The notes under the pieces: model-generated | What the model was told of the DNA's origin: nothing | The model's database searches: none | The model's input: the letters and a program-made list of their open reading frames with translations, nothing else | Position numbers and translations under genes: made by a program | Source: Escherichia phage LF82-9 | DNA: 64,000 nucleotides | Direction: 5' to 3' (one strand) | Sequence record: PV660452 | Shown: positions 16,813-53,136 of the stretch, one piece after another | How the letters are laid out: each line of letters opens with the position of its first letter | Position numbering within the stretch: the stretch's first letter is position 1

Positions 16813-16849
16813 CATAGGTCTATTATATCATAATATTTAGAGACCTATC
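16813..16849 (-). promoter_or_regulatory. inverted-repeat element upstream of gene 55 (candidate promoter)
   Basis: ATAGGTCTATTATATCATAATATTTAGAGACCTAT. Confidence 0.3.
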
Positions 16850-16864
16850 TTAAAGCACGAGATA

Positions 16865-17134
16865 CTATCGGAGCAAACAATAAGCCTGGAATACTTTTTC
16901 CATTAAACGTTTGAACTCATGGATATCGATATAAAGCTCGGTTAATCCAGCTCCATAAAGAAAATCTAAAAAGTTCTCATGTGTTTCGTTATAGTCGCCT
17001 TCGTTTAATTGAGATACATGAGTTTCCCAAAAACCGACACCTTTAACAAATGGAAAATACGTAACTTTCATAAAGTTGTCGACGTAAAATTCGCCCAGCT
17101 TTTCTTCAGTTATACTGATTCGAGTTAATTTCAT
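16865..17134 (-). CDS. hypothetical protein
   Basis: 89-aa ORF. Confidence 0.45.
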   Translation of the reverse strand: MKLTRISITEEKLGEFYVDNFMKVTYFPFVKGVGFWETHVSQLNEGDYNETHENFLDFLYGAGLTELYIDIHEFKRLMEKVFQAYCLLR

Positions 17135-17358
17135 TCTAGTTCCTTTGCTGCAAATAAGGCAGCATCCAATGAATCAAATTGGTCAACGAAATCAATATTC
17201 AACGCATCGTCAACCGTAGCATATAACCACCATTGTTTGAATTCGTATTCTAGAATAAATCCAGGACCTTCAATCTGAGGAAGACCTAGGCTATTTGTAC
17301 CAACTTCGTAACCAGCTAGACGCAGGTCATTAATCAAAGTTTCTGTTAATACGCTCAT
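17131..17358 (-). CDS. hypothetical protein
   Basis: 75-aa ORF. Confidence 0.45.
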   Translation of the reverse strand: MSVLTETLINDLRLAGYEVGTNSLGLPQIEGPGFILEYEFKQWWLYATVDDALNIDFVDQFDSLDAALFAAKELE

Positions 17359-17687
17359 TTTGCCGCCTTAACAATTTTCAGGTCAACGAATTTTTTCTTA
17401 CGTTGATTTTTCATACGACGGATAGTCTTTTCAGAGATTTCATGTTTCTGATAAGCTTTAGATTCAACACCAAATGCAGCAACGTCAAATTCAGAAAGAA
17501 TATATTGTACTAGAATTTCACGAATAGAATTACGTCCAATTTTCTGGTCGTGTTTTTGCATGATTTCATAAAGACGGAATTCCCACGCGTCAAGAACTTG
17601 AGGAGTAACAATACCACCTTTTTCTAGAAGACTAACAACTTTATCGAAAGCGAAAGAGTTCACTACGTTTTTGATTTTAGTAGACAT
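17355..17687 (-). CDS. hypothetical protein (start moved to second ATG)
   Basis: First ATG lies inside the promoter -10; second ATG at 17687 has AGAGGAAAA SD. Confidence 0.5.
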   Translation of the reverse strand: MSTKIKNVVNSFAFDKVVSLLEKGGIVTPQVLDAWEFRLYEIMQKHDQKIGRNSIREILVQYILSEFDVAAFGVESKAYQKHEISEKTIRRMKNQRKKKFVDLKIVKAAK

Positions 17688-17705
17688 ATTATTTTCCTCT
17701 GTTAT

Positions 17706-17750
17706 TTTATTATCCAACGAGAGCATTATACTCTGCTCTCAAGAGTTTGT
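17706..17750 (-). promoter_or_regulatory. early promoter with -10 inside a hairpin (copy A of a 45-bp repeat)
   Basis: Minus strand ACAAACTCTTGAGAGCAGAGTATAATGCTCTCGTTGGATAATAAA; near-identical copy at 47804..47850. Confidence 0.5.
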
Positions 17751-17753
17751 GCG

Positions 17754-17993
17754 TTATTTCGTGATAAGATAATGTAAATAGTTTGCTTGACGAACACTGA
17801 TATCAACACCCATATCAAAGATACCTTTATAGAACGGGTATTTGTTTTCAGTAGAATCTAGACTAAAAGCCTTTCCGCCACAACTAACGGTAATAGCATC
17901 AGTTAAAGTGTCATATACAAACTTAATAGTTGAGCCGTTCACTACAACTTCAAGACGTTTTTTCGATGTAATAATGTCTAATTCTTGTTCCAT
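17754..17993 (-). CDS. hypothetical protein
   Basis: 79-aa ORF. Confidence 0.45.
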   Translation of the reverse strand: MEQELDIITSKKRLEVVVNGSTIKFVYDTLTDAITVSCGGKAFSLDSTENKYPFYKGIFDMGVDISVRQANYLHYLITK

Positions 17994-18048
17994 GATATTC
18001 TCCTCAAATTGGTAGGAAGAAGTGTTATCTTCCTACCATCATAAACTA

Positions 18049-18249
18049 TTAACCGAACTTTTTAGCGCCTTTCCAGCCTTCGTACATAATTGCGCAAGTC
18101 AATAGCACAGCATGTTGGCATTCTTTGTATTTGTAAATCCAGAACCAGCGTAAAAAGTCTTCATCCTCAACACCGTTGAGTTTCATATTGGCAAAGAATT
18201 CGGCACGTTCTTCACGAAGCTTTTGCGATAACATAGATTCAGGATTCAT
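18049..18249 (-). CDS. hypothetical protein (ATG start; track start is GTG)
   Basis: MNPESMLSQKLREERAEFF... Confidence 0.4.
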   Translation of the reverse strand: MNPESMLSQKLREERAEFFANMKLNGVEDEDFLRWFWIYKYKECQHAVLLTCAIMYEGWKGAKKFG

Positions 18250-18473
18250 TTTGTATTCCACGCCCCATTTTCATCGATGAACTTAATCCAGTCATTTACA
18301 GACCATTTAGTTGTATCACCCTTTGGATTAACATTTAAAGTATATAATCCTTGCTTAAAAAGCATTCGTTTGATATTCATAATTTCCTCAACTGTAACGA
18401 TAACATTCGTTAGCTTTACGTTTGGCTTCAGTATGAGAAGTATTATAATCATACTCTTCTTTACTGTAAACAT
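18246..18473 (-). CDS. hypothetical protein
   Basis: 75-aa ORF. Confidence 0.4.
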   Translation of the reverse strand: MFTVKKSMIIILLILKPNVKLTNVIVTVEEIMNIKRMLFKQGLYTLNVNPKGDTTKWSVNDWIKFIDENGAWNTK

Positions 18474-19116: not shown

Positions 19117-19264
19117 TTTGTTTTCCTCTATAGCAGATGGTTTAATCTTAACATATCTATCGAGGATGTAAACTGTTTTATGAAAATATTTTTGATTTGA
19201 GAGGGGCACAAGGAGATAGTGAAGTGAAGATTCCAATGGATTATATTAGAAATGAGATAAAGAA

Positions 19265-22972: not shown

Positions 22973-23007
22973 GATAAACCCTTACCTTAAATAGATAAGG
23001 GTATTTA

Positions 23008-23434: not shown

Positions 23435-23632
23435 TCAATATTCTCTATAAAAGTTACGATGAGAACGTTTAGCTTTGCGAAGCTGACGTTTAGTAGGACG
23501 AACTGTAAATAGTTGTCCAGAGAAAAAATTCGAATCGGTTTTAATAAGCAAATACCAATCATGCTTGCCATTTTTTAATAAACGGTACAATAATTTAACT
23601 TGCATAATAATCTCTTCCCATTTCCATATCAA
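23435..23632 (-). CDS. hypothetical basic protein
   Basis: 65-aa ORF ending 2 nt before next ATG. Confidence 0.35.
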   Translation of the reverse strand: MIWKWEEIIMQVKLLYRLLKNGKHDWYLLIKTDSNFFSGQLFTVRPTKRQLRKAKRSHRNFYREY

Positions 23633-23733
23633 TTAATTCATTTATTGAAGGTTCATCATAACATGGTTCTTCGTCGTTGTAAACCGTTTCGACGTCTGGC
23701 TCGACAGTCTCCCATCGAGCAGAATACCACGGT

Positions 23734-24069
23734 TTAACCCCGGAGTTTATTGAGCTCTTCATAATCAATCCAGGATTCTAGCCCTGACGGCAGGTCACAT
23801 TCAATGTTCCACAGAAGCTCTTCAATGGCTTGCAGGCGATTATATTCTTCAACAGTAATAGTAACCATTGTTTCAGGCTTTTTAACCATCATGTCATTCA
23901 TCAGAATGTACAGATCTTCACAAACAGCCGGGTCGTCCCATGTCCATATTTCAGCATCTCGAACCAATGAAGTCGGAATAGAATTTAAAACTTCAAGCTT
24001 AGTAGGAGCGTCAGGACCGAGAAGAGTTGCTACAAATTTATATGCTTTGGCGAAATCAATATCGTTCAT
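23734..24069 (-). CDS. hypothetical protein
   Basis: 111-aa ORF. Confidence 0.45.
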   Translation of the reverse strand: MNDIDFAKAYKFVATLLGPDAPTKLEVLNSIPTSLVRDAEIWTWDDPAVCEDLYILMNDMMVKKPETMVTITVEEYNRLQAIEELLWNIECDLPSGLESWIDYEELNKLRG

Positions 24070-24087
24070 TTAAAATATTCTCGCAGT

Positions 24088-24384
24088 TTATTGTTCTACC
24101 CAGGCACAGGAAACTTCGAAATCAGGACCACCGTATTCCCAGTGATATTCACCAACAGGAATCCAGTCACCGTGCTCGTTTTCTTCGTAGTCTTCAGGTT
24201 CAAGACCAACGAATCGCCATTGAACACCTATGATTCGATTACCCATTAATATACGAAATTCACCCCATGGATTATCGATAGCATATTGGATATCGTTCTT
24301 AGCACGAGAACACATTTCTTGATATAACAAAGCTTCTAATTCGCCCTGATCATAAGGGCCCGGGAAAGTTAAATCAATACTCAT
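24088..24384 (-). CDS. hypothetical protein
   Basis: 98-aa ORF. Confidence 0.45.
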   Translation of the reverse strand: MSIDLTFPGPYDQGELEALLYQEMCSRAKNDIQYAIDNPWGEFRILMGNRIIGVQWRFVGLEPEDYEENEHGDWIPVGEYHWEYGGPDFEVSCAWVEQ

Positions 24385-24644
24385 TTAAAATATTCTCGCA
24401 GTTGGTCAAATCCACCAATATGACTTCCATCAGGAGCAAATACTTGAGGCATAGTCAATCCAACTTGTGATTCACGTCCTAGTTTATTCAGAAGCTCGTC
24501 AATTTTTTCTTCATCAAATACACCTTTCTCTGGCATAACATTAATGAATTCGAATGGCTGTTTCTTAACAGTCAGCAATCGTTTCGCATTATCACAATAA
24601 ATGCATTTATGAATAGTAGAGTCATACCCGTACACTTTAAACAT
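24381..24644 (-). CDS. nrdC: thioredoxin/glutaredoxin NrdC
   Basis: MFKVYGYDSTIHKCIYCDNAKRLL.. near-identical to T4 NrdC. Confidence 0.9.
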   Translation of the reverse strand: MFKVYGYDSTIHKCIYCDNAKRLLTVKKQPFEFINVMPEKGVFDEEKIDELLNKLGRESQVGLTMPQVFAPDGSHIGGFDQLREYFK

Positions 24645-26305: not shown

Positions 26306-26330
26306 AATATTTTCCTCTCGTTAAGATAGA

Positions 26331-26363
26331 TTTATTATACTCCAACCATCCTTGGTTGTAAAC
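26331..26363 (-). promoter_or_regulatory. early promoter/stem-loop cassette (GTTTACA - hairpin - TATAAT)
   Basis: Minus strand GTTTACAACCAAGGATGGTTGGAGTATAATAAA. Confidence 0.5.
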
Positions 26364-27327: not shown

Positions 27328-27350
27328 TTTATATTCCTCATGTTGAAAAA

Positions 27351-27383
27351 TTTATTATACTCCAACCATCCTTGGTTGTACAT
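27351..27383 (-). promoter_or_regulatory. early promoter/stem-loop cassette (near-identical copy of 26331..26363)
   Basis: TTTATTATACTCCAACCATCCTTGGTTGTA shared with 26331 copy. Confidence 0.5.
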
Positions 27384-28378: not shown

Positions 28379-28440
28379 AACTATTTCCTCAGATTGAATT
28401 GGAACTCAAAACCATTATAACCCGTCCTTGGGTAAAGCGT

Positions 28441-28968: not shown

Positions 28969-28987
28969 GTTTTACCTCCAGTAGTTG

Positions 28988-29026
28988 ATAGGTCTATAAT
29001 AACACAACCATAGACCTTGTAAACAA
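28988..29026 (-). promoter_or_regulatory. early promoter/stem-loop cassette
   Basis: Minus strand GTTTACA N17 then -10 flanked by inverted repeat GGTCTAT/ATAGACC. Confidence 0.45.
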
Positions 29027-30433: not shown

Positions 30434-30463
30434 TTTATTCTCCAAATTTACTCATTTCGTTTT

Positions 30464-30501
30464 GATAGGTCTATAATAACATATCCTAAAAACATGTACA
30501 C
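30464..30501 (-). promoter_or_regulatory. early promoter/stem-loop cassette
   Basis: GATAGGTCTATAATAACATATCC...TGTACA. Confidence 0.4.
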
Positions 30502-32735: not shown

Positions 32736-32861
32736 TTTACCATACTCGTTTCAATAAGATTCACTATGCCGTTTACCATGTTATAAGTAAACATCGGATA
32801 ATTGTATTGTACTACAACATAAGCGATAAGCAAAAGTTTCATTTTGTTCTCCGTTCGTTTT

Positions 32862-32900
32862 GGTAGGACTACTATAACATAGTCCTACCAAGATGTAAAC
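32862..32900 (-). promoter_or_regulatory. early promoter/stem-loop cassette
   Basis: GTTTACA N17 TATAGT with inverted repeat GGTAGGACTA/TAGTCCTACC. Confidence 0.45.
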
Positions 32901-33293: not shown

Positions 33294-33313
33294 AACGTTC
33301 TCCTCTAGTAAGT

Positions 33314-33349
33314 AAGGTCTACTATAACACAACCTGAGGAGAAGTAAAC
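33314..33349 (-). promoter_or_regulatory. early promoter/stem-loop cassette
   Basis: GTTTACT N16-17 TATAGT. Confidence 0.4.
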
Positions 33350-37545: not shown

Positions 37546-37564
37546 TTTGATTTCTCCTCTAGTT

Positions 37565-37602
37565 GACAAGTCTATAGTAACACAACTAGAGGAGAAGTAA
37601 AC
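37565..37602 (-). promoter_or_regulatory. early promoter/stem-loop cassette upstream of regB
   Basis: GTTTACT N17 then -10 region with inverted repeat. Confidence 0.4.
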
Positions 37603-39595: not shown

Positions 39596-39672
39596 TTAGT
39601 TTCTCTTTTAGGTTGGGCCATTCCGTGGCGCATGAATTGTCCATTTCTGTATTTACCCCTCTAAGTAATTAT

Positions 39673-39706
39673 GAATATACTATCACAATTCTAGGAGAAA
39701 GTAAAC
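39673..39706 (-). promoter_or_regulatory. early promoter/stem-loop cassette
   Basis: GTTTACT N17 TAGTAT. Confidence 0.4.
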
Positions 39707-40011: not shown

Positions 40012-40075
40012 TTTTTGTTTCCTTGTTTGTTTTGATAGAGTAATTATACCATATTAATACTTAAGCGTAAACAAT

Positions 40076-40336: not shown

Positions 40337-40342
40337 TTTTCC

Positions 40343-40756: not shown

Positions 40757-40774
40757 AATTTCCTCCAAGTAGTT

Positions 40775-40813
40775 GATGAATGTATAGTATCAAAACCCTT
40801 GGAGGAAGTAAAC
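40775..40813 (-). promoter_or_regulatory. early promoter/stem-loop cassette upstream of denV
   Basis: GTTTACT followed by hairpin and TA-rich -10. Confidence 0.4.
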
Positions 40814-41096: not shown

Positions 41097-41581
41097 ATAT
41101 ACGCTTTCCAAGTTCCTGTTTTAAATGTTGAGATTACGCGTTTCGCGCGATTAGGTGTCTGACGATACCATTTAGATTGGGCGAGATTTACTGCCGCTTC
41201 ATCCCAACGTTTCTGTTGAAGCATACGAAGAGAATTAGTAAAACCAGCAACGCCTGCTACACCCATTTGGAAGACCATATTGACCAATGCACACCGACGA
41301 ACTGCATCTAAAGAATCATATACCGGTTTAAGTTTAGCATTACCCAAGATTCCGCGAACGGCTTTATCGACGTCTTCATTAAATAGCTTTTCAGCCTCAT
41401 CAAGGGTAATTGTACCGTTGCATTTACGACCGATCATTCTGTCAAGTTCAGCTTTAGCTACGGCTAAAGACGGGTTCTTTGTTACCAAGTGGCCTATGCC
41501 AATCGTCCAAAAGCCTTCAGTGTCTTTGTATAAAGTCAGTCTAAGACCTTCGTCATTACGAAGCATTTCAAATATATTCAT
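41093..41581 (-). CDS. e: lysozyme (gene e)
   Basis: [29 protein letters not shown] near-identical to T4 lysozyme. Confidence 0.97.
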
Positions 41582-41609
41582 AATACCTCCCACGTTTATA
41601 GGAGGTATT
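41582..41609 (-). promoter_or_regulatory. RBS-sequestering hairpin with late-promoter-like TATAAAC in the loop, upstream of gene e
   Basis: Minus strand AATACCTCC-TATAAACGTG-GGAGGTATT then ATG; SD GGAGG paired with ACCTCC. Confidence 0.5.
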
Positions 41610-41615
41610 TATTAC

Positions 41616-43690: not shown

Positions 43691-43710
43691 AATATTCTCC
43701 TCATGTTTTA

Positions 43711-43748
43711 ATAGGACTACTATAACATAGTCCTATAATTGTGTAAAC
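43711..43748 (-). promoter_or_regulatory. early promoter/stem-loop cassette
   Basis: GTTTACA N17 TATAGT with inverted repeat ATAGGACTA/TAGTCCTAT. Confidence 0.45.
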
Positions 43749-43760: not shown

Positions 43761-44717
43761 TTATTTGAAAGGTTTTACCATATGAAAGTTTTGTTTGAAA
43801 CGCTTGACGTAATCGTCGTGTCCTAAGCTTTGGTACATACTTACTACTTTGCTATAATTTTCCCAAGCGAACTCACGGAACCATCCTGATGTGATTGATG
43901 TACAGACCTTTTCAAGGGCCATCATAAAACTATCACGTGGATGGATTTCAAAGTTATTAGGAATCTGAGAACGTTCTAACGCTAGTACACATGATTCTTC
44001 GTATACGCCGGCCAATTTGACCATTTCTGGTAATGATTCGAACTTCTCGCGTGAGGTCATGACTTCAGAACCATCTTTCATATAAAATGTATACGCTGGA
44101 CGGTCCGTTAGTGCAATGGCTTCGTGAATAGTATCATGGTCATACGTATAGATGTCATCTTTAAAGAATGCGCTTTTAGAAGTGTCAAGAACTGGGTGAG
44201 CATAGTTCAAGGTTTCTTTCTGGCGTTTCAGCATAATTTCATTAAGTTCATCGTTCAGTGTAACACCTTTACCACGAAGATACTGAATATGGTTCATAGT
44301 CTTTAAAAAGAATGGATTATTTTTCTTGAAACGATGGGACATCTTAATTGCAAGGCACATCTCAGGAGTTGCCCAGTAAAACCCGTTCAAACGGTCTTTA
44401 GTCAAATTTTTCTTGGCGTATTTTAAAAGGTCATAAGAAGACGTGAAATCTTCAGGAGTGAGTTCACCGACTAATTCACGGACATTAGTGATTGCCGGAA
44501 CAATATATGCTTCAAAATGAGTTTCGCGCCCATTATGGAAGCATTTGAAAACTTGGACATCAGGGTTATCTTGGTGAACATATACACCCATCATTTGATT
44601 TTTGAATGCATTCCAAGAACCTTGGTCCGCAATAAAGTCCCAATCACTATTTTTAATAGCGCTAGAATCAATAAGACCGTGATAGTGAAGTGCACGAGAA
44701 CCAATAACTAACATCAT
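43761..44717 (-). CDS. hypothetical protein
   Basis: 318-aa ORF. Confidence 0.5.
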   Translation of the reverse strand: MMLVIGSRALHYHGLIDSSAIKNSDWDFIADQGSWNAFKNQMMGVYVHQDNPDVQVFKCFHNGRETHFEAYIVPAITNVRELVGELTPEDFTSSYDLLKYAKKNLTKDRLNGFYWATPEMCLAIKMSHRFKKNNPFFLKTMNHIQYLRGKGVTLNDELNEIMLKRQKETLNYAHPVLDTSKSAFFKDDIYTYDHDTIHEAIALTDRPAYTFYMKDGSEVMTSREKFESLPEMVKLAGVYEESCVLALERSQIPNNFEIHPRDSFMMALEKVCTSITSGWFREFAWENYSKVVSMYQSLGHDDYVKRFKQNFHMVKPFK

Positions 44718-44745: not shown

Positions 44746-44997
44746 TTAAATTTCACGACATGCGATATTATATTCATCCCAGAGGTCATCATGTGAAGCC
44801 TCTACCAATGGAACGATTGTACCGTTTATGTCTTCATTATAAGGGCAAATTGTACAGTGCGCATCTTCGAATCGGATGCCTTTGTGTTCAGATTTTTTAT
44901 AACGCATATCGAATATCTTTGCAAACTTTTCACGAGTAATGGTTTTACCAACCACTTTGGTTCCGATACTTTCGTAATAAATCATTGTGGACTCCAT
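44746..44997 (-). CDS. hypothetical protein
   Basis: 83-aa ORF. Confidence 0.45.
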   Translation of the reverse strand: MESTMIYYESIGTKVVGKTITREKFAKIFDMRYKKSEHKGIRFEDAHCTICPYNEDINGTIVPLVEASHDDLWDEYNIACREI

Positions 44998-45004
44998 TTG
45001 TTTT

Positions 45005-45043
45005 GATAGGACTACTATAACATAGCCCTATCTTGTTGTAAAC
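45005..45043 (-). promoter_or_regulatory. early promoter/stem-loop cassette
   Basis: GTTTACA N17 TATAGT, sequence nearly identical to 43711 cassette. Confidence 0.45.
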
Positions 45044-45536: not shown

Positions 45537-45842
45537 TTAGCACAACGCAGAAGACGAAACCCAAGCACCTTCAGTAATAACGTAACCATTACCTTCACGC
45601 TTAACATCGCCACCATTATTTTCAATTTCATCTTTCATCCACTGGGATACGATTTCACCCTTAGGATAATAAGTACGACCGCTACCATAATCACCTACAG
45701 AAAACGATACAGCGTATTGGTCTGCAATCTTTGTAGCTTCTTCTTCGATACGTTCAGCTTGATTCAGAAGTTTATAAATTGCATCTGAAGCGGATTTGGC
45801 ATCATTAAACTCTGGTACTTTAATTTCAATAATCTTACTCAT
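45537..45842 (-). CDS. small protein, member of tandem paralog triplet
   Basis: Ends GAWVSSSALC. Confidence 0.5.
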   Translation of the reverse strand: MSKIIEIKVPEFNDAKSASDAIYKLLNQAERIEEEATKIADQYAVSFSVGDYGSGRTYYPKGEIVSQWMKDEIENNGGDVKREGNGYVITEGAWVSSSALC

Positions 45843-46198
45843 TTTCTACATTCCTTAATAAAGTTTTCTATTGTTTCATTTTCACGTCTAGCTAGGAGTT
45901 CATTATAACTAATCATTTGAGAAGCGTAAACCTTTTTATTTTTCTTGTTATGGTTTATAAAATCGTAGTAAAAATAGACTACAGTACAAAATGATGCGAT
46001 GGATGCAAAGGCTTGAGTATATCGTAAGTCCTGCCATTGGTCTGTGAATCCACCGGTGTTCCCTATAAATCCTAACACAACTCCGTCAATAAGAAATCCA
46101 ACTAATCCAAAGGCAAATCCCATGCCAATACTCATAATAAAAATTAGAATGTTCTCACCGAGAGAAGGCCGTACGGTTAAGAGTTGAGGCTTTTGCAT
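45839..46198 (-). CDS. membrane protein
   Basis: Hydrophobic helices. Confidence 0.45.
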   Translation of the reverse strand: MQKPQLLTVRPSLGENILIFIMSIGMGFAFGLVGFLIDGVVLGFIGNTGGFTDQWQDLRYTQAFASIASFCTVVYFYYDFINHNKKNKKVYASQMISYNELLARRENETIENFIKECRK

Positions 46199-47186: not shown

Positions 47187-47780
47187 TTATTTCAAAGAGT
47201 TAATATATTCTTGTACATCAGCAGAAGTGGTTTCGACACCGGCTGGAGTACCATTGAACGTTTCAACACGAGTCAGAGTGTCTTCGATATCAACCTTAGT
47301 CAGTGCAGCGATTTCAATTACATCATCGGCCGTAGAGATACCAAGGGCATTGGCTGCTCGAGTTTCACGAATGTATTCGAGTTTGATTGCCAGGTTCTGA
47401 CGAGCATCGTCAAGTTCAACCACCTTACGAGCAATTTCAATTCGCATAGCGGCATACCCGTCAGCTTTTGTATTAAGTTGTTCGGCAGTTCGACGATACA
47501 GAAGACCAAGCTTAGCATGCATGGTAACATCTTGTCCTTCAGCCAGGAGCTTACGAATTTCACGTTCCTTAGAAGCGGCTTGCTTGTTCTTTTCATTAAC
47601 AAGTTCGCGAATACGTTTTTCTTCATTAATAGATTTAACAGAAGCCGTTTTTAGTTCTTTGATCTGGGTAATCAACTTATCTGCAGCTGCGTTATACTGT
47701 TCTTCGACAGTCAGATTTTTAGCCATAGCAGTACCCAGTTTAGTGCGGATAAATTCAACAAGTTTCTTCAGTGTGTTCAT
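47187..47780 (-). CDS. coiled-coil protein (PspA-like appearance, unverified)
   Basis: [10 protein letters not shown]...; long heptad-like helical sequence. Confidence 0.5.
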
Positions 47781-47803
47781 ATTATTACCTTTCAATTGGT
47801 GGT

Positions 47804-47850
47804 TTATTATCCAATGAGAGCATTATACTCTGCTCTCAAGAGTTTGTAAA
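47804..47850 (-). promoter_or_regulatory. early promoter with -10 inside a hairpin (copy B of 45-bp repeat)
   Basis: TTTACAAACTCTTGAGAGCAGAGTATAATGCTCTCATTGGATAATAAA. Confidence 0.5.
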
Positions 47851-48078
47851 TTATTTTTTAATCAAATTGACATAAAACTTGGCGTCTTCGGGGTGCATGC
47901 CTTCGCAGTATTCTTCAACCATGAAATTCTTAACAGCTTCATAAGGACCACTCAGATTAAGCTCAGTTGTCCAAAACTTGGAATCTTGGACTGAATCGAT
48001 ACGAACTTCAGGATGACGATTGCGAATAACTTCTTCGGTGTATTCATAATCAACGACATCAATACTAACTTTAGCCAT
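47851..48078 (-). CDS. hypothetical protein
   Basis: 75-aa ORF. Confidence 0.45.
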   Translation of the reverse strand: MAKVSIDVVDYEYTEEVIRNRHPEVRIDSVQDSKFWTTELNLSGPYEAVKNFMVEEYCEGMHPEDAKFYVNLIKK

Positions 48079-48103
48079 TTTGTTTCTCCTCTTGATTTGA
48101 TGT

Positions 48104-48137
48104 GATTACTATAACATAAACGTACTTAGATGTAAAT
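48104..48137 (-). promoter_or_regulatory. early promoter cassette
   Basis: ATTTACA N17 TATAGT. Confidence 0.4.
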
Positions 48138-48290
48138 TATTTCAACGTCACCTTTAGCGGCTTTATAACCTTCAGCCCAAGATACAACAGAGTTTTTATC
48201 TGAGGATTCAAATTCAGGCATTGGACTTTCACCAATATTCACACAGTATGTTTCTTCATTTTCATCGAACCAAATAATTAAAGTAGTCAT
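48126..48290 (-). CDS. small acidic protein (54 aa), not in ORF track
   Basis: Hand translation MTTLIIWFDENEETYCVNIGESPMPEFESSDKNSVVSWAEGYKAAKGDVEIIYI; GGAGTAAACAAA SD. Confidence 0.4.
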   Translation of the reverse strand: MTTLIIWFDENEETYCVNIGESPMPEFESSDKNSVVSWAEGYKAAKGDVEIIYI

Positions 48291-48311
48291 TTTGTTTACT
48301 CCTTTGTAGTT

Positions 48312-48350
48312 GATAAGTCTATAGTATCACCATCCTTGGTGCTTGTACAC
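48312..48350 (-). promoter_or_regulatory. early promoter/stem-loop cassette
   Basis: TGTACA-type -35 with hairpin CACCAAGGATGGTG and -10 TACTAT. Confidence 0.35.
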
Positions 48351-48352
48351 AA

Positions 48353-48616
48353 TTATTTCATATTATTGAAATATTCTTCTGCGATTTCGTCGTTATCATG
48401 GTAAACTTTAGAAGACAGTTTAACATAACCTTCTGCCGTGAACATGTTAATCACAACCTTTACAGTATACCACTGACCGTCTTCATTACCCATTACTGCG
48501 TAAGTTTCAAACATCGGATGATCAGGACCAATAACTTTAATATCATTCACTGTACGACCGAAATCTTCTGAAACACATTTCATAAAGAAGTTGAACAGTT
48601 CGCCGTAATTATCCAT
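48353..48616 (-). CDS. hypothetical protein (ATG with GGAG SD)
   Basis: MDNYGELFNFFMKCV... Confidence 0.45.
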   Translation of the reverse strand: MDNYGELFNFFMKCVSEDFGRTVNDIKVIGPDHPMFETYAVMGNEDGQWYTVKVVINMFTAEGYVKLSSKVYHDNDEIAEEYFNNMK

Positions 48617-48650
48617 TTCATTCTCCAAATTGTTTTCTGTATCAGTAGTT

Positions 48651-48689
48651 GATAGTTGTATAGTACCATGGAAGAACAGGGATGTAAAC
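48651..48689 (-). promoter_or_regulatory. early promoter/stem-loop cassette
   Basis: GTTTACA N17 TACTAT. Confidence 0.45.
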
Positions 48690-48827
48690 AGTTTTGTGAA
48701 AAAATTTTTTAAAAAGTTTTAGGGAATTCTAGGGTCAGGAGGGACAATTAAAAGGTAGGATAATATATTATAAAGGGTATAAACTAAATGATGCCCAGAG
48801 AGGCCCGGAAAGGCCTAGATACCAAAA

Positions 48828-48851
48828 AGCCCCAACCTTTCGGCTGGGGCT
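48828..48851 (-). terminator. conserved terminator hairpin, copy 3 of 4
   Basis: AGCCCCAGCC-GAAA-GGTTGGGGCT then T5. Confidence 0.5.
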
Positions 48852-48858
48852 AAGAATG

Positions 48859-49332
48859 TTATATGATTTGTTTAGCAGACCAAATGCGGTCTTTAATAAT
48901 TTTTTGGATGTCTTCAACATATTCAAGAGAGTGAACATGTGGGTTATCTTTGAAACTATAAGCACGAGCTAGCTTTTGGCCTTCAGTTTTGATTATCAAA
49001 AGTTCTTTAAGAATTGCTTCATACCTAGAGATAATTCCTTTAGCAATATTTTTTTCTTGTGCTGCTTTAGGGTCAGCCTTAGGAGCAGGTTTACCTGAAG
49101 CCTTTGCAAAAGCAGCTCCAGTAGCAACTAAACTTTTCCAAGCCATACTAACTGCATTCCCTGTAAATCCTTCGGCTTTCATATCACGAGCAAATTGGAA
49201 TCGTGATTCATCGGAAGCATCTTTATAGGAATATTTACCCGCGGCAATGGCAGCTTTTGCAACAGCTTGAATTTCAGTGCTAGATGCTTCATTTAACACC
49301 GCTTCATTTAAAAATTGAGCATATGATTTCAT
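48859..49332 (-). CDS. internal protein-like with capsid-targeting N-terminus
   Basis: N-terminus MKSYAQFLNEA; Ala/Lys-rich. Confidence 0.55.
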   Translation of the reverse strand: MKSYAQFLNEAVLNEASSTEIQAVAKAAIAAGKYSYKDASDESRFQFARDMKAEGFTGNAVSMAWKSLVATGAAFAKASGKPAPKADPKAAQEKNIAKGIISRYEAILKELLIIKTEGQKLARAYSFKDNPHVHSLEYVEDIQKIIKDRIWSAKQII

Positions 49333-49368
49333 CTTATTTCCTGTTTTAATTCGTGGTTTTAATATACT

Positions 49369-49376
49369 TATTTATA
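49369..49376 (-). promoter_or_regulatory. late promoter TATAAATA
   Basis: Exact TATAAATA on minus strand 37 nt upstream of ATG at 49332. Confidence 0.45.
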
Positions 49377-49382
49377 CTAAAA

Positions 49383-49406
49383 AGCCCCAACCTTTCGGTC
49401 GGGGCT
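49383..49406 (-). terminator. conserved terminator hairpin, copy 4 of 4
   Basis: AGCCCCGACC-GAAA-GGTTGGGGCT then T5. Confidence 0.5.
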
Positions 49407-49458
49407 AAGCCTTGCGGCAACCTTGTCGGGGTTCCACCTGCTAAGGCAAGTGTTTGTA

Positions 49459-49549
49459 CGAAACGCCGGGATTCGAACCCGGTTATTAAGCAGTTGACGC
49501 TACTCAATATTTTTAAAAGGCCATATCTCGACCATATCCGAACGTTCCG
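49459..49549 (-). ncRNA. tRNA-like element / candidate small stable RNA (not a canonical tRNA)
   Basis: Perfect T-arm CCGGG-TTCGAAT-CCCGG and a 7-bp acceptor-like pairing 49543..49549 with 49459..49465, but 91 nt long and no canonical D/anticodon arms. Confidence 0.3.
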
Positions 49550-49693
49550 TCAAAAACGCTACTCGGCTTACGGCAAAGATATTTCCTCGAATCGATAATT
49601 CGGTGCGCCGTTTCTGCTGTGATGTAAGAGGGCATCAATAAACGCAAAGATTATTAACGCAATTCCTTACTCAGGGAACATCAGTCCGACGAC

Positions 49694-50248
49694 TTACCGG
49701 TAGCGACCCGGTTTCTCATTTGGTATTTCAAATTGTGTAGATTTAGTATCTAATTTTTTAACTATGGAACTTATGTCATGAAAGAAAAACCATTCACCAT
49801 TTATATGGTCCTGATTATAAATGCTGTGCATATATTTTTCAAGTTCTACTGCATCCTGGGAATATCTAAATGATACTATTTTAAAACTTTTAAACGGTGA
49901 AAATGTATTTGCTGTTATAACTCTAACATCAGGTTCTATACTTCTTCCTATTTTATAATAATTAGGATTTGTAGTATCTACCATTATGTATACGAAAGCC
50001 TGTCGATAGCTTTTTTCTATATCAAATTCATCTTTAAATTTCAAAAGATTTAGGGCGGCAGTCCTACAAAATACTTTCCATTTTGACAAGCGTTTGGCTT
50101 CAGTCATAGAAAAGAATTTTTTCTTATCTGTTATTTTAAGAAAAGCAACATTTTCAATTAGTTCTTGTGTTATTTCAAAATTACCATGGTATATTAATCC
50201 AGCTTTTATAGCCAAATTAATTTGGTCCCAGTCTACATCACTTCTCAT
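49694..50248 (-). CDS. T5orf172/GIY-YIG-like domain protein inside the tRNA region (candidate homing-endonuclease-like gene)
   Basis: Motif FVYIMVDTTNPNYYKIGRSIEPDVRV resembles VYxL..N...YKIG.T....R core; AT-rich ORF; sits where T4 has segB. Confidence 0.4.
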   Translation of the reverse strand: MRSDVDWDQINLAIKAGLIYHGNFEITQELIENVAFLKITDKKKFFSMTEAKRLSKWKVFCRTAALNLLKFKDEFDIEKSYRQAFVYIMVDTTNPNYYKIGRSIEPDVRVITANTFSPFKSFKIVSFRYSQDAVELEKYMHSIYNQDHINGEWFFFHDISSIVKKLDTKSTQFEIPNEKPGRYR

Positions 50249-50269
50249 AATATTATTCTCTCAATAATT

Positions 50270-50346
50270 TGGTCAGGGTGAAAGGATTCTAACCTTTAAC
50301 CTGCGGTTTAGAGGACCGCTACTCTATACAATTGAGTTACACCCCG
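50270..50346 (-). tRNA. tRNA-Arg (anticodon UCU)
   Basis: Hand-folded cloverleaf; T-loop TTAGAAT; anticodon loop CCTCTAA (C at position 33 atypical); CCA encoded. Confidence 0.6.
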
Positions 50347-50472
50347 TAATTAGTTCACAGCAATACCTACTCCAACAATCAAGATGTCTTCACACGAAAT
50401 TAAGAGAAGTGTGATCAGTTCAACCCCTATAATCGCGTCAAGTAGATATTAATGTGACAGTTGTCACAAGTT

Positions 50473-50547
50473 TGGCGGACATGCATGGATTCGAACCATG
50501 GACCAATTGATTAACAGTCAACTGCTCTACCACTGAGCTACACATCC
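50473..50547 (-). tRNA. tRNA-Asn (anticodon GUU)
   Basis: Cloverleaf with D-arm GCTCAGTGGTAGAGC, anticodon loop CTGTTAA, T-arm CATGGTTCGAATCCATG, CCA encoded. Confidence 0.7.
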
Positions 50548-50551
50548 AAAT

Positions 50552-50638
50552 TGGTGGGGAGTGGTGGAGTCGAACCACCCGAGTCGCAATGACAATGAAT
50601 TTACAGTCCACACCGCTACCTCTACGGGATAACTCCCC
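50552..50638 (-). tRNA. tRNA-Tyr (anticodon GUA), long variable arm
   Basis: Acceptor GGGGAGT/ACTCCCC, anticodon loop CTGTAAA, T-arm GGTGGTTCGACTCCACC. Confidence 0.6.
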
Positions 50639-50644
50639 TTAATT

Positions 50645-50719
50645 TGGTGGCCCTGGGTGGAATTGAACCACCATCTGGCGATTATGAGTCGCTTGCTTGA
50701 ACCTTCCAGCTACAGGGCC
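50645..50719 (-). tRNA. tRNA with CAU anticodon (Met or lysidine-modified Ile)
   Basis: Acceptor GGCCCTG/CAGGGCC, anticodon loop CTCATAA, T-loop TTCAATT. Confidence 0.6.
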
Positions 50720-50720
50720 T

Positions 50721-50796
50721 TGGTGCTGATTAACGGAATCGAACCGCCGACCTTCTCATTACAAGTGAGTTGCTCTACCTACTGAGCTAAATCAGC
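50721..50796 (-). tRNA. tRNA-Thr (anticodon UGU)
   Basis: Acceptor GCTGATT/AATCAGC, D-arm GCTCAGTAGGTAGAGC, anticodon loop CTTGTAA. Confidence 0.7.
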
Positions 50797-50801
50797 AAAA
50801 C

Positions 50802-50891
50802 TGGCGGAGGCGATAGGATTTGAACCTATGAGTCGCCGGAGCGACTGCCGGTTTTCAAGACCGGTGCATTAAACCACTCTGCCACGCCTCC
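50802..50891 (-). tRNA. tRNA-Ser (anticodon UGA), long variable arm
   Basis: Acceptor GGAGGCG/CGCCTCC, anticodon stem-loop CCGGT-CTTGAAA-ACCGG. Confidence 0.7.
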
Positions 50892-50893
50892 AG

Positions 50894-50967
50894 TCTCCAT
50901 ACAAGGATTTGAACCTTGGACCTCCTGATCCCAAATCAGGCGCTCTACCAAACTGAGCTACACGGAG
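50894..50967 (-). tRNA. tRNA-Pro (anticodon UGG)
   Basis: Acceptor CTCCGTG/TATGGAG, anticodon loop TTTGGGA, T-arm CAAGGTTCAAATCCTTG; CCA not encoded. Confidence 0.7.
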
Positions 50968-50977
50968 TAAATTAAAT

Positions 50978-51051
<74 letters not shown>

Positions 51052-51056
51052 AAATT

Positions 51057-51143
51057 TGGTGCGAGAAGTGGGACTCGAACCCACAAGGAAATCATTCCGC
51101 AGCATTTTAAGTGCTGTGCCTTTACCAATTTGACCATTCTCGC
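51057..51143 (-). tRNA. tRNA-Leu (anticodon UAA), long variable arm
   Basis: Acceptor GCGAGAA, anticodon loop CTTAAAA, T-arm GTGGGTTCGAGTCCCAC, CCA encoded. Confidence 0.75.
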
Positions 51144-51144
51144 G

Positions 51145-51217
51145 CTGGGAATAAAGGACTCGAACCTTTGCATCCTGGAATCAAAATCCAGTGCCTTACC
51201 AACTTGGCTAATTCCCA
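51145..51217 (-). tRNA. tRNA-Gln (anticodon UUG)
   Basis: Acceptor TGGGAAT/ATTCCCA, anticodon loop TTTTGAT, abuts tRNA-Leu with 1-nt spacer as in T4 Gln-Leu dimer. Confidence 0.75.
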
Positions 51218-51303
51218 ATTATTAACAAAGGCTCTCAAACAAGAACCCTTGATGATAGAGGGTATTAATCAGTGCGGTATAAGTTAATAATAACAAATAA
51301 TTC

Positions 51304-51819
51304 TTAAAGCAAATTAAACATCTTAACGGTCGGCAAAACAATTTCTTCTTCTATATAAGAGTATTTAACACTCTCAACTACACGCAAAAAATCATAATCA
51401 TAATACTCAGAAGCATTACCTAAAATATTAATAAGTCCTTCAAGCACTTTATTACCATTCACAAAGAATAAGTCAAATACACGTTCTTCATCTTCTTCAG
51501 ATTTATTACCAAGGTCAACTTCTATATCAAAGACCTTTTTAATGAATTCTGGATAAAGTTGGTCTGAGAACAGTCCTTCAACCAAGTATTCATAGATAAA
51601 AAGCGATTGCTCACTGAACGAAGCATTACCACAATAGTGATCAACTTTTGTGCTAGAATGACGGCTTTTAAACTTCTTTAAAAGATATTGGAATTGTAAG
51701 ATTTCATGCTCTTCTACACCAAACAATGTTTTGGTTTTATAGTTGTCACCGTCATTTTCCCATGTAGTTACATCAATCACATAACCCTGCGGAATTGTAG
51801 TACCTAAACAAATATTCAT
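51304..51819 (-). CDS. hypothetical protein
   Basis: 171-aa ORF. Confidence 0.5.
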   Translation of the reverse strand: MNICLGTTIPQGYVIDVTTWENDGDNYKTKTLFGVEEHEILQFQYLLKKFKSRHSSTKVDHYCGNASFSEQSLFIYEYLVEGLFSDQLYPEFIKKVFDIEVDLGNKSEEDEERVFDLFFVNGNKVLEGLINILGNASEYYDYDFLRVVESVKYSYIEEEIVLPTVKMFNLL

Positions 51820-52109
51820 TTGCTCACCATATTAATGTAAGTATATTCAATACATTCAAGACCCAAAGGATTCTTGAAAATATCATATTCAAGAGGACCT
51901 TTTTCCGTTTCAATAAAGAAATCAAAATTTACTGTATTAAATTTACGGTCTTCCTTCACTAATTTAACTTGAGAAGATGAACGGTCAACATAAACCTTTT
52001 CAACTTCAAAACACGTTAAAACGCCATAATCATCAATCAAGGCTTTAGCTGCTTCTTGATCATATTTATATCCATTTTCAATGGATGATACTTTTGCATA
52101 AAGAATCAT
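51816..52109 (-). CDS. hypothetical protein
   Basis: 97-aa ORF. Confidence 0.45.
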   Translation of the reverse strand: MILYAKVSSIENGYKYDQEAAKALIDDYGVLTCFEVEKVYVDRSSSQVKLVKEDRKFNTVNFDFFIETEKGPLEYDIFKNPLGLECIEYTYINMVSK

Positions 52110-52111
52110 TG

Positions 52112-52522
52112 TCAGCCTCTATCAACGATAGCATGAGTATGGGCATTTACGATTTGCCACCAGTCGAAACGATTGGAACCATAATCTGGTTTATTTTCAT
52201 TTTCTTTAATGATATCACGCAGCTTATCTTCTGTTTCAGCATACGCAATTAAATCATCATATCCACCGCAAGGATAATAATTATCACCTGCGAATAAAAG
52301 AAAATTTACCTTAGATGGATTTACGTAATAATGGTCTTTAGGATATTTAGTTCCTCTCCAATCAGTTACTTCAACATAACGGTAAGAAAATCCATTTTTA
52401 CTTTCAATCCAACTCCACGCTTCAAAAGGAGTATTAAAAACTTTATCAGGTATTAAATTACCTTCAAAATGAGAAGGATTTGCATAATCCCCAGCATAAA
52501 CATAATATTCGTTAATACTCAT
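52112..52522 (-). CDS. hypothetical protein
   Basis: 136-aa ORF. Confidence 0.5.
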   Translation of the reverse strand: MSINEYYVYAGDYANPSHFEGNLIPDKVFNTPFEAWSWIESKNGFSYRYVEVTDWRGTKYPKDHYYVNPSKVNFLLFAGDNYYPCGGYDDLIAYAETEDKLRDIIKENENKPDYGSNRFDWWQIVNAHTHAIVDRG

Positions 52523-52708
52523 TTATTCACCTTTAGAAATTTTATCCATAACGATAGTGATTAAACCAATTAAAAATGCTACTACAAGTGAAAAAACATT
52601 TTCTGCTGTAGTTAATAATCCGCATATAAATCCAACAAACATTGAAAAACTAAAAGCAGAAGCAGAAATTGCAATAGCAACATTTCGAATTAATTCACAG
52701 CGTTTCAT
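52523..52708 (-). CDS. small membrane protein
   Basis: 61 aa, hydrophobic. Confidence 0.45.
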   Translation of the reverse strand: MKRCELIRNVAIAISASAFSFSMFVGFICGLLTTAENVFSLVVAFLIGLITIVMDKISKGE

Positions 52709-52727
52709 TTTATTCTCCTCAGTAGTT

Positions 52728-52766
52728 GATAGGGTAATAGTATCACAACTAAAACCCTATGTAAAC
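52728..52766 (-). promoter_or_regulatory. early promoter/stem-loop cassette
   Basis: GTTTACA N17 with inverted repeat TAGGGT/ACCCTA around -10. Confidence 0.45.
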
Positions 52767-52784
52767 AACTTTGTGAAAAATTTA

Positions 52785-53072
52785 TTACAAAAGATTTTTA
52801 GCAATAATTTTAAGCTGAGCTACTGAAATATGCTTGGCTTTAAACAAAGCAGTTTCTTCAGCAGGGGAGATAACGATTGTAGCACCATCTTTCTTAGCGG
52901 ACCATCCATCACCAAGGTAAACAGTACCTTTGACTTCTTCTCCATCAACCAGGCTAATCATCGGTTTACCTTCACGTCCTTTGTTTGCTTTAATAACTTC
53001 GGAAGTAAGGGTCGCTTCGGTCAGAGTAGAAACGTTAGCATCAGGTGATATAAATTCTTTATAGGTTTTCAT
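52785..53072 (-). CDS. internal protein I-like (capsid-targeting N-terminus)
   Basis: N-terminus MKTYKEFIS; 95 aa; position upstream of 57B as T4 ipI. Confidence 0.6.
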   Translation of the reverse strand: MKTYKEFISPDANVSTLTEATLTSEVIKANKGREGKPMISLVDGEEVKGTVYLGDGWSAKKDGATIVISPAEETALFKAKHISVAQLKIIAKNLL

Positions 53073-53098
53073 TTTATTTCCTTGAGGTTGTTTATTTT

Positions 53099-53136
53099 AT
53101 AGGATGATAGTAACACACCATCATCCTTATGTAAAC
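53099..53136 (-). promoter_or_regulatory. early promoter/stem-loop cassette
   Basis: GTTTACA TAAGGATGATGGTGTGT TACTAT with inverted repeat GGATGAT/ATCATCC. Confidence 0.45.

Follow-up and report, generated by a model that had tools for sequence, protein, structure and literature searches.

The stretch analysed here, called the window throughout, is 64,000 nucleotides (nt) of DNA from Escherichia phage LF82-9 (sequence record PV660452), and the elements in question are short promoter-containing cassettes that lie in front of small early genes on its minus strand. The window is phage DNA of 35-39% G+C. Its identity is 99.9% to Escherichia phage LF82-1, about 94.6% to RB69, the type of Mosigvirus, and about 70-80% to T4, and more than 150 Mosigvirus genomes reach an identity of at least 95%; the window is assigned to Mosigvirus, the RB69-like coliphages. 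Between DNA polymerase (5895-8606) and gene 4 (about 56588), both included, the genes lie on the minus strand, and plus-strand late genes follow from 56650. The span from 16.8 to 53.1 kb has as its T4 counterpart the interval from gene 55 to genes 57B/1, a recognised hyperplastic region with many small early genes (Comeau, Arbiol & Krisch 2014, PMC4122927). All cassettes are located between gene 55 and gene 57B, and a motif scan of the whole window found none in the replication or late-gene parts. When Rfam covariance models were run over 16000-54000, nine tRNAs alone reached the gathering score and no cassette was matched. The T4 GenBank and RefSeq records carry no annotated promoter features.

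An earlier note, made from the letters of the sequence, had claimed that GTTTAC-type promoters recur on the minus strand with an inverted repeat at the -10 hexamer, resembling the promoter-early stem-loop (PeSL) cassettes of T4-type phages. The promoter motif was borne out. The pattern GTTTACW-N16-18-TAHWVT has 14 matches compared with 0.68 expected (maximum of 3 in shuffles), and 13 of the 14 are on the minus strand. Within 14228-56588, divided according to gene calls transferred from LF82-1, 11 strict matches fall in 4,108 nt of intergenic DNA and one in 38,253 nt of coding DNA. The density is 2.68 per kb intergenic versus 0.026 per kb coding, a difference of about 100-fold (binomial p=8e-11), so that the motif is not equally frequent in coding DNA, as the note had allowed that it might be. 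A generic TTGACA/TATAAT scan of the window showed no enrichment (66 versus 72.9 expected; 59 versus 58.5), and the signal is therefore specific to the T-even form of the -35 element.

Inspection of every intergenic region yielded 17 clear cassettes and about nine degenerate or intragenic ones (16846, 17750, 18041, 18471, 23684, 27376, 28435, 39705 and 45931), each named by its upstream-end coordinate on the minus strand, so that 53136 denotes 53073..53136. The figure of about 19 given in the earlier note was a fair one, and each of seven positions that it listed (28988, 32862, 43711, 45005, 48651, 52728 and 53099) is the 3' end of a real cassette. The near-identity it saw between 26331 and 27351 also holds, as the cores are 88% identical over 43 nt (repeat family D8). 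In Nolan et al. 2006 (PMC1524935), 58 early promoters were predicted in RB69 by a hidden Markov model seeded with the T4 consensus. Coordinates of these Pe sites were taken from the supplement of that paper, and the sites were extracted from RB69 and matched to the window; 21 window cassettes map one-to-one onto predicted Pe sites, with 91-100% identity, and 12 precede the same gene as a T4 cassette. By sequence, the repeated motifs are confirmed as predicted sigma-70 early promoters of an RB69-like phage.

Most cassettes have A/T-rich DNA in the 20 nt upstream of the -35; if the -35 adjoins a stop codon, the AT-rich stretch lies in the 3' end of the upstream gene. The sequence TTTTCACAAAAC(T/A)GTTTAC is common to five cassettes (repeat family D9), and families D1-D5 unite cassettes that are related to one another in sequence. 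Downstream of every intergenic cassette, GGAG, GAGG or AGGA is followed by ATG within 15-45 nt. The cassette layout would read: AT-rich UP-like stretch, GTTTAC(A/T), 17-nt spacer, (TG)TA(Y)WRT, start about 7 nt further on, Shine-Dalgarno (SD) sequence and start codon. As to their setting, the earlier note had several cassettes ending exactly at the stop codon of the upstream gene, which is correct for 32900 and 37602 (TAGTTTAC) and for 47851 (TAATTTAC), and nearly so for 28969..29024 and 26306..26363. Its picture of each small open reading frame (ORF) as a separate promoter-gene module fits the 8 of 26 cassettes that precede a single gene, with a run of such modules at 47.8-48.7 kb, and not the rest, which head runs of 2-11 genes; nor are the genes served always small accessory ORFs, several cassettes being placed before the conserved regB, denV and nrdC.x genes.

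The 17 clear cassettes were each folded as RNA, and z-scores were calculated against 200 dinucleotide shuffles. The inverted repeat noted earlier is real in nine of them, in which the stem is significant (z -3.7 to -7.1; 0/200 shuffles as stable), namely 53136, 52766, 47851, 45043, 43748, 40813, 37602, 32900 and 29024. It is marginal in two (33349 and 19173), and in the remaining six folded cassettes (48689, 48350, 48137, 40072, 30501 and 26363) no specific stem was found. Because the common consensus makes shuffles a weak control, chimeras were built in which the left half of one cassette was joined to the right half of another with the consensus retained. Native cassettes have a mean folding energy of -11.8 kcal/mol compared with -8.0 +/- 0.69 for the chimeras (z -5.6; 0/20,000 permutations as low). 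Native folds are thus more stable than chimeric ones, which shows that each cassette has a complementarity of its own that the consensus does not account for. Among 129 non-redundant cassettes from 29 related loci, 42% have a helix score of at least 8, versus 8% of chimeras. The related loci were taken from T4, RB32, RB51, RB69, five other Mosigviruses and 19 IMG/VR contigs; the latter were chosen around gene 43761-44717, include one close relative only, were of no help in mapping junctions and served as a source of diverse cassettes. Counting of covariation in fixed columns was dropped for the chimera tests, since the helix register varies (i+j = 43, 44 or 49).

Orthologous cassettes of the window and T4 keep the helix with unrelated arms at regB, denV, the mobD.2a-side gene and the ipI/57B side. 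At the mobD.2a-side gene, the window arms TTGGTAGGACTAT/ATAGTAGTCCTACCAA of cassette 32900 and the 14-bp T4 arms AGTTGACAAGATTA/TAATCTTGTCAACT are wholly different. On the ipI/57B side, AGGATGATGG/CTATCATCCT in the window (53136) corresponds to GATGAGGTAGTG/CTATTACCTCATC in T4, and at denV TTCCTCCAAG/CTTGGAGGAA corresponds to TCTCCTGTAG/CTACAGGAGA. In the T4 orthologue of 29024 the spacer pairs with the SD instead. The regB orthologues were collected irrespective of structure: in four lineages the spacer is paired with the SD region, in each by means of a different complementary extension (CTAGTTG/CAACTAG, CTTGACTG/CAGTTAAG, CTTTATG/CATAAAG and TGTAAG/CTTACA), and a fifth has a nested two-helix version. 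The helix is, to judge from these orthologues, maintained by compensatory change.

The mismatches carry information on the strand involved. Non-Watson-Crick positions in native helices comprise 18 G·T and 3 A·C, compared with 36:33 (52%) in chimeric helices (p=0.0014). Such a bias is expected for sense RNA, in which G·U pairs form, and neither a cruciform nor a protein site on duplex DNA would be expected to produce it; the bias points to pairing of the sense strand, most simply as RNA, and single-stranded DNA of the sense strand may also be compatible with it. A different arrangement was seen in four of the related loci (L018, L020, L021 and L025) upstream of the homologue of 43761-44717, where the 5' arm, TGTAGAA, is part of the preceding gene, upstream of the -35, and its partner TTCTACA follows the -10, so that the whole promoter is held in a loop of about 40 nt.

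With the -10 hexamer set at -12 to -7, the predicted start is the A of ..CCTAtc, within the last 1-3 bases of the 3' arm (for example, TATAGTagtcctA, in which +1 is A), and the 5' arm occupies about -28 to -16 in the promoter spacer. In about 60% of the cassettes the 5' part of the spacer can pair with one or the other of two downstream targets. The target in class a consists of the 8-13 nt next to the -10 hexamer on its downstream side, which places the end of the stem at +1 to +3. The target in class b is the SD region, and four cassettes belong here: 37602 (regB), 40813 (denV), 33349 and 19173. Since the 5' arm is upstream of the start site, the transcript from the cassette's own promoter would lack it and stay open, and the hairpin could therefore form in read-through RNA only. 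From the predicted start position we infer this restriction to read-through RNA.

For class b, the computed probability that SD..AUG is unpaired is 0.65-0.84 in the transcript from the cassette's own promoter and drops to 0.29-0.42 when the RNA is a read-through one (denV 0.69 to 0.29, regB 0.67 to 0.41, 33349 0.65 to 0.32 and 19173 0.84 to 0.42); for the other 13 of the 17 cassettes SD accessibility is little changed in the read-through context. The hairpin might insulate each unit from upstream transcription. In class b such insulation would operate by masking of the SD in read-through RNA, and in class a it may consist in attenuation of the read-through RNA or in a nuclease-resistant 3' end, a barrier to 3'-exonucleases, for the upstream message. 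The remnant 18041, which has kept its stem and corresponds to a full cassette in RB69, hints that the stem may have a value independent of the promoter. The coordinates, promoter elements and hairpins of all sites are given in Table 1.

Table 1. Early-promoter cassettes and related sites of the window, all on the minus strand; folding energies in kcal/mol, z against dinucleotide shuffles, RB69 sites by Pe or Pm number and T4 sites by locus position
Site	Coordinates	Promoter and gene context	Stem	Energy	z	RB69 or T4 counterpart	Remarks
53136	53073..53136	-35 GTTTAC, -10 TACTAT; ahead of internal-protein gene 52785-53072	AGGATGATGG/CTATCATCCT, encloses -10	-15.4	-5.46	Pe:77187 (orthologue)	
52766	52709..52766	ahead of trna.4-like gene 52523-52708	ATAGGGT/ACCCTAT	-13.2	-3.72	T4 cassette L001 37573, one mismatch	T4-type sequence; right edge of Tequatrovirus-like block, junction at 52746-52785
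48689	48629..48689	good promoter match; ahead of e.8-like gene 48353-48628	no specific hairpin		+0.55	Pe:73274	canonical terminator about 130 nt upstream
48350	48291..48350	-35 GTGTAC; ahead of 54-aa ORF 48126-48290	no cassette-specific hairpin		-0.93	Pe:72567	left edge of Tequatrovirus-like block; junctions at 48344-48364 with 15-nt overlap
48137	48079..48137	-35 ATTTAC; ahead of 75-aa ORF 47851-48078	no hairpin		+0.84	Pe:72354	
47851	47796..47851	-35 ATTTAC, overlaps upstream stop codon; ahead of e.6-like gene 47187-47795	TGAGAGCA/TGCTCTCA, encloses TATAAT	-13.8	-3.86	Pe:72069	
45931	45843..45931	GTTTACGCTT...TATAAT, inside e.3-like ORF 45839-46198					promoter-like site
45043	44986..45043		GATAGGGCTAT/ATAGTAGTCCTATC, one G·U pair	-16.0	-6.54	Pe:69254	
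43748	43691..43748		ATAGGACTAT/ATAGTAGTCCTAT	-12.7	-4.66	Pe:67959	
40813	40757..40813	ahead of denV	spacer TTCCTCCAAG pairs with SD CTTGGAGGAA	-18.9	-5.65		
40072	40012..40072	GTTTACGCTTAAG...TATAAT; ahead of internal-protein gene 39709-40011	no hairpin		-0.36	Pe:64193 and Pm:64182	overlaps MotA-box-like sequence
39705	39596..39705	-10 TAGTAT; long 5' untranslated region	decayed compared with 14-bp stem of T4, TCCTAGAATTGTGA/TCACAATTCTAGGA		-1.41	T4, L001 29800	
37602	37546..37602	-35 overlaps upstream stop codon (TAGTTTAC); ahead of regB	14-bp TTCTCCTCTAGTTG/CAACTAGAGGAGAA, masks SD	-21.4	-4.73		
33349	33294..33349	right after canonical terminator	spacer TTCTCCTC pairs with SD GAGGAGAA		-1.76	Pe:58138	
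32900	32843..32900	-35 overlaps upstream stop codon	13-bp TTGGTAGGACTAT/ATAGTAGTCCTACCAA	-20.6	-7.08		
30501	30434..30501	-35 GTGTAC; after terminator	weak		-1.55	Pe:55296	
29024	28969..29024	ahead of nrdC.8-like gene 28441-28968	AGGTCTATGG/TTATAGACCT	-13.4	-4.86		
28435	28379..28435	CTTTAC, 11-nt spacer, TATAAT					degenerate
27376	27328..27376	-35 ATGTAC				Pe:52042	core near-identical to 26363 (D8)
26363	26306..26363	GTTTACA...TATAAT	small intra-spacer hairpin only (CCAAggatggTTGG)		-0.17	Pe:51019	
23684	23606..23684	GTTTACA...TATGAT, intragenic				Pe:48639, 100% identical; T4, L001 11453	promoter-like site
19173	19117..19173	-10 TAAGAT	spacer CCTCGATAG imperfectly paired with SD CTATAGAGG		-2.06	Pe:43945	
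18471	18381..18471	GTTTACA...TATAAT, intragenic				Pe:43242; T4, L001 5262	promoter-like site
18041	17994..18041	GTTTAT, no usable -10	hairpin only, GGTAGGAAG/CTTCCTACC	-18.1	-4.60	Pe:42816 (full cassette)	remnant
17750	17727..17750	-35 lost; annotated start codon within tataATG				Pe:42515	degenerate; copy of 47851 core
16846	16793..16846	no GTTTAC; MotA-box-like TGCTTTA at non-canonical distance; ahead of gene 55	ATAGGTCT/AGACCTAT, around TATAAT	-9.2	-2.04	none in RB69 early or middle promoter lists	promoter class uncertain

Two of the sites share GTTTACGCTT, an early -35 fused to a MotA-box-like sequence, at 40043-40072 in 40072 and at 45902-45931 in 45931, both on the minus strand. Their RB69 orthologues are predicted both as early promoters (Pe:64193 and Pe:70143) and as middle promoters (Pm:64182 and Pm:70132), and neither window site has a cassette-specific hairpin. 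The segments 17693-17770 and 47790-47867 form a 78-nt repeat (D11), 81% identical, that comprises the cassette core and 5' untranslated region at two loci 30 kb apart.

The earlier note had further likened the cassettes to ones proposed to drive the shuffling of gene modules, a role that is only weakly testable here. In an alignment of the window to eight close relatives, 68 distinct indel or replacement boundaries were located between 16.0 and 53.3 kb. Fourteen of them fall within -25 to +45 of a -35, an enrichment over the 3.4 expected for a uniform distribution (0/20,000 trials reached 14). Measured against an intergenic null that includes 15 nt of the gene ends, 13 were observed and 9.5 expected, which is not significant (p=0.14), and any hot-spot effect is inseparable from the requirement that junctions fall between genes.

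Some individual positions are nevertheless suggestive. Nine boundaries are found at or shortly before a -35, at 0-23 nt upstream; among them are two independent events with an end exactly at the G of GTTTAC (43748 and 45931), and others end 5-15 nt upstream (47856, 37612, 48361 and 40087). In ECO111 a 664-bp insertion begins exactly at the G of GTTTAC of cassette 43748. LF82-1, TH12, ECO111 and one IMG/VR contig (L008) have a 240-bp deletion in the e.3-like ORF (45932-46181) that ends exactly at the G of GTTTAC of the internal promoter 45931; the LF82-1 junction, read directly, reduces the ORF to a 4-codon stub, and TH58 and RB69 keep it in full. A module of 254 bp is additionally present in RB69 and ECO111, and the 24-nt overlap at its junction falls in the -10/3'-arm region of cassette 30501; a 15-nt overlap lies inside cassette 48350.

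The window also has a block of about 4.4 kb (48353-52784) whose identity to Tequatrovirus phages (T4/RB32/RB51) is 95-100% and which has about 100% Mosigvirus backbone on both sides, an inter-genus mosaic. It contains the e.8-like gene, rnaC/rnaD-like DNA, nine tRNA genes and trna.2-4-like genes, and at its position RB69 and LF82-1 have only two tRNAs. The block ends at the upstream edges of cassettes 48350 and 52766. At both ends the cassette core comes from the same parent as the downstream gene, and promoter and gene therefore travel together. As dispersed repeats of 40-60 nt placed exactly between genes, the cassettes could be among the short homologies that serve module exchange between related phages.

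An alternative is that the cassettes are ordinary promoters, that junctions overlap them for reasons of viability, and that homing endonucleases and any short homology drive the exchange. We regard this as quite possible, at somewhat less than an even chance. It is favoured by the intergenic null, by the cassette core accompanying the downstream gene at both block junctions, by junction overlaps also found at a terminator repeat (29 nt), an internal-protein leader (27 nt) and a 23-nt repeat, and by a T5orf172/GIY-YIG-like ORF inside the block at the position of T4 segB. Homing-endonuclease co-conversion is a plausible alternative route for the import of the block; SegB is reported, in a study of that enzyme, to drive inheritance of the tRNA region. 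What it accounts for less readily are the nine boundaries just upstream of a -35, the two exactly at the G of GTTTAC and the overlaps inside 30501 and 48350; moreover, PeSL-to-PeSL mini-circles were shown experimentally in RB49 and phi1 (Arbiol 2010, PMC2839356).

Several other elements of the region were recorded in their own right. The ORF in the tRNA block (49694-50248, minus strand) encodes 184 aa with a T5orf172/MUG113 (GIY-YIG-like) domain; it has 0% match to T4 and is 71-86% identical to Mosigvirus relatives. A four-copy terminator family, AGCCCC(N4)CGAAAGGTTGGGGCTTTTT, has near-identical members at 33345-33388, 33968-34011, 48808-48851 and 49363-49406. The first two flank gene 33393-33950 (DUF7338), which is absent from TH12, phiEC1, HX01 and RB69 with a 29-nt junction overlap. 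A perfect 23-nt direct repeat (24066-24088 and 24381-24403), unrelated to promoters, flanks a 98-aa ORF (24088-24384) that is replaced by about 40 nt in TH58, ECO111, phiEC1 and RB69. A 36-nt repeat present in five copies (39980-40015, 40305-40340, 41065-41100, 49301-49336 and 53041-53076) covers the SD, ATG and first codons (MKTYQEF-like leader) of internal-protein-type genes, and in RB69 this leader repeat is the site of a 346-bp insertion (53050-53076), the junction overlap within the repeat being 27 nt.

As to the stem itself, the proposal made for RB49 PeSLs would have it act in all cassettes mainly as a transcription terminator or attenuator of the upstream unit. The stem-loop of RB49 PeSL211/210 lowered lacZ expression about as much as rrnB T1 (Arbiol 2010, PMC2839356). 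In the window, the hairpins sit exactly between transcription units, and two of the four cassettes that follow a canonical terminator (48689 and 30501) lack a hairpin that 9 of the 13 others have. The stems of the RB49 type are G/C-rich with a T-rich spacer, however, whereas those of the window are A/U-rich and followed by ATCAAAAC with no U-run, and the four SD-pairing stems point to translational masking and not to termination. Among 38 terminator-like calls in the window there was no cassette hairpin, the stems being followed by ATCAA(A/C)(A/T)AC, and true terminators are present as separate elements, including AGCCCC..GGGGCTTTTT. By sequence criteria none of the stems looks like an intrinsic (Rho-independent) terminator, and termination as their main function throughout is considered unlikely.

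It is very improbable that the inverted repeats work at the DNA level, whether as cruciforms or as palindromes to which a phage or host regulator of early promoters binds. The symmetry is indeed centred on the extended -10 region, and early-promoter shut-off is incompletely understood (PMC3014915), but the arms are wholly different among cassettes and orthologues and thus contain no common operator, loops of 6-30 nt disfavour cruciforms, the bias of G·T over A·C is strand-specific, and class-b arms extend to the SD, 40-45 nt away; this reading was rejected. Scarcely credible at all, and rejected since the chimera test did not support it, is that the repeats are a by-product of a partly palindromic consensus or of recent cassette duplication: ACTATgtTATAGT is self-complementary and recurs in 45043, 43748 and 32900, and families D1-D5 show kinship, yet the chimeras retain the consensus and lose stability, and arms beyond the consensus covary (AGGATGAT/ATCATCCT, ATAGGGT/ACCCTAT, GAGAGC/GCTCTC and TTGGTAGG/CCTACCAA).

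Taken as a whole, we think it probable that the elements are sigma-70 early promoters, mostly PeSL composites, with a hairpin that would form in read-through RNA only, and that they are dispersed repeats used in module exchange. Several points weigh against this combination. The start sites are inferred from the position of the -10 in the sequence. Six of 17 good promoters lack a specific hairpin, and the stem is not obligatory. Class-a stems have no U-run and were not called terminator-like, and their effect on read-through RNA is therefore conjectural. Sense and antisense folding energies are close (-11.8 versus -10.8 kcal/mol) and do not discriminate between the strands. For module exchange, there is the non-significant result under the intergenic null, and non-cassette repeats (terminators, internal-protein leader, 23-nt repeat) are found at junctions just as often.

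The early-promoter cassettes offer a concrete, testable view of the way in which dozens of small early genes can remain self-contained units in a T4-type phage, each with a very strong promoter whose sequence would fold only in RNA that comes from upstream. Were the read-through hairpin functional, it would account for extra conserved positions of T-even early promoters, improve the annotation of early units in Mosigvirus and Tequatrovirus therapy phages, and supply compact promoter-plus-insulator parts for phage engineering. The junction data locate natural module swaps, including that of the Tequatrovirus tRNA block, and help to predict mosaicism of therapeutic phages. Tentatively, and with more doubt than confidence, it may be a general, selected design rule of Tevenvirinae early promoters that the spacer pairs with the discriminator or SD. 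If so, the hairpin would be an insulator by which each early gene is translated or stabilised only from its own promoter, the arrangement of genes e, soc, 49 and I-TevI, so far a matter of a few late promoters, would apply to dozens of early units as well, and an explanation would be at hand for the hitherto unexplained 'additional consensus' positions, among them C at -3 to -1, of early promoters in T4 and RB69.

The likeness to PeSLs seen by the earlier note is supported, since the elements agree with the published definition at the sequence level: an AT-rich upstream stretch, a sigma-70-like early promoter with a stem-loop, then SD and start codon, the stem-loop usually between -35 and -10 or overlapping the -10, with a preference for hyperplastic regions (Arbiol 2010, PMC2839356). 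Caution is called for in one respect, as no specific stem-loop is present in about a third of the cassettes. In the T-even variant (Comeau 2014, PMC4122927) the promoter is TTTACW-N17-TAYWAT and the stem AGNA-loop-TCNT, and the window cassettes show this form (e.g. tAGGActatgttatagtagTCCTa). With the PeSLs of PST/T4 and nt-1/KVP40 described there they share the promoter form, the AGNA-loop-TCNT stem, the AT-rich upstream DNA, the 3' SD-ATG, the occurrence of degraded 'half' PeSLs and, apparently, the clustering in hyperplastic regions by indels. They differ in that Mosigvirus was not analysed in that paper, in that the PST stems are placed 'just upstream of the promoter' in its legend whereas the window arms straddle the -10 or reach the SD, and in that the upstream canonical terminators of the window are separate elements.

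The PeSLs of RB49 and phi1 are likewise composites of a strong early promoter with a stem-loop that flank variable ORFs, and were proposed as recombination linkers (Arbiol 2010, PMC2839356). Unlike the window cassettes, they have a TTGACA -35 and polyG/polyC stems followed by T-rich sequence, similar to terminators; the window stems are A/U-rich, have no U-run and include an SD-masking subclass. Three more distant relatives among the loci (L033, L035 and L037) have the RB49 form, with a CCCCG...CGGGG stem, TTGACA in the loop and T-rich sequence thereafter. To judge by sequence, the T-even/Mosigvirus form is a structural variant of the RB49-type composite.

With the early promoters of RB69 and T4 (PMC1524935; Hinton 2010, PMC2988021) the cassettes share the UP/-35/TGn/-10 'uber-promoter' layout, and the RB69 preference for C at -3 to -1 described in PMC1524935 coincides with the CC of the window 3' arm. 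No mention of inverted repeats, stem-loops or hairpins at early promoters was found in the searched passages of either paper; Hinton 2010 (PMC2988021) notes only 'additional regions of consensus'. Both the PeSL kind and the RB69 promoter parts are already known, so that the finding is correct and largely known, and the published basic picture of PeSLs is unchanged by it. Possible additions may be the selected pairing cassette by cassette, the G·U bias of the sense strand, the regular position of the 5' arm upstream of the start, and SD masking at early promoters (regB, denV). These four were not found in the literature examined, the scope of which excludes the older T4 literature.

The closest parallel to class b is provided by the hairpins of T4 e, soc, 49 and I-TevI, in which the 5' arm lies upstream of the proximal start and the 3' arm over the SD/AUG; long read-through transcripts are translationally silent and proximal ones active (Uzan & Miller 2010, PMC3014915). 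There the proximal promoter is late and the hairpin delays expression, whereas the window cassettes are early sigma-70 promoters. SD masking of this type is found in 4 of the 17 window cassettes and not in the other 13. The window also has the classic T4 arrangement on its minus strand at gene e (41582-41615) and gene 49 (22973-23007), with late-promoter-like TAAATA followed by SD-pairing hairpins (-16.3 and -12.9 kcal/mol; z -4.7 and -3.5, respectively). Lambdoid morons, finally, are comparable as autonomous promoter-gene units inserted between conserved genes. Morons, however, have a G+C content unlike that of the host and no conserved linker flanks (PMC2839356 and PMC1524935), whereas the window cassettes match the composition of the phage and resemble one another in sequence.

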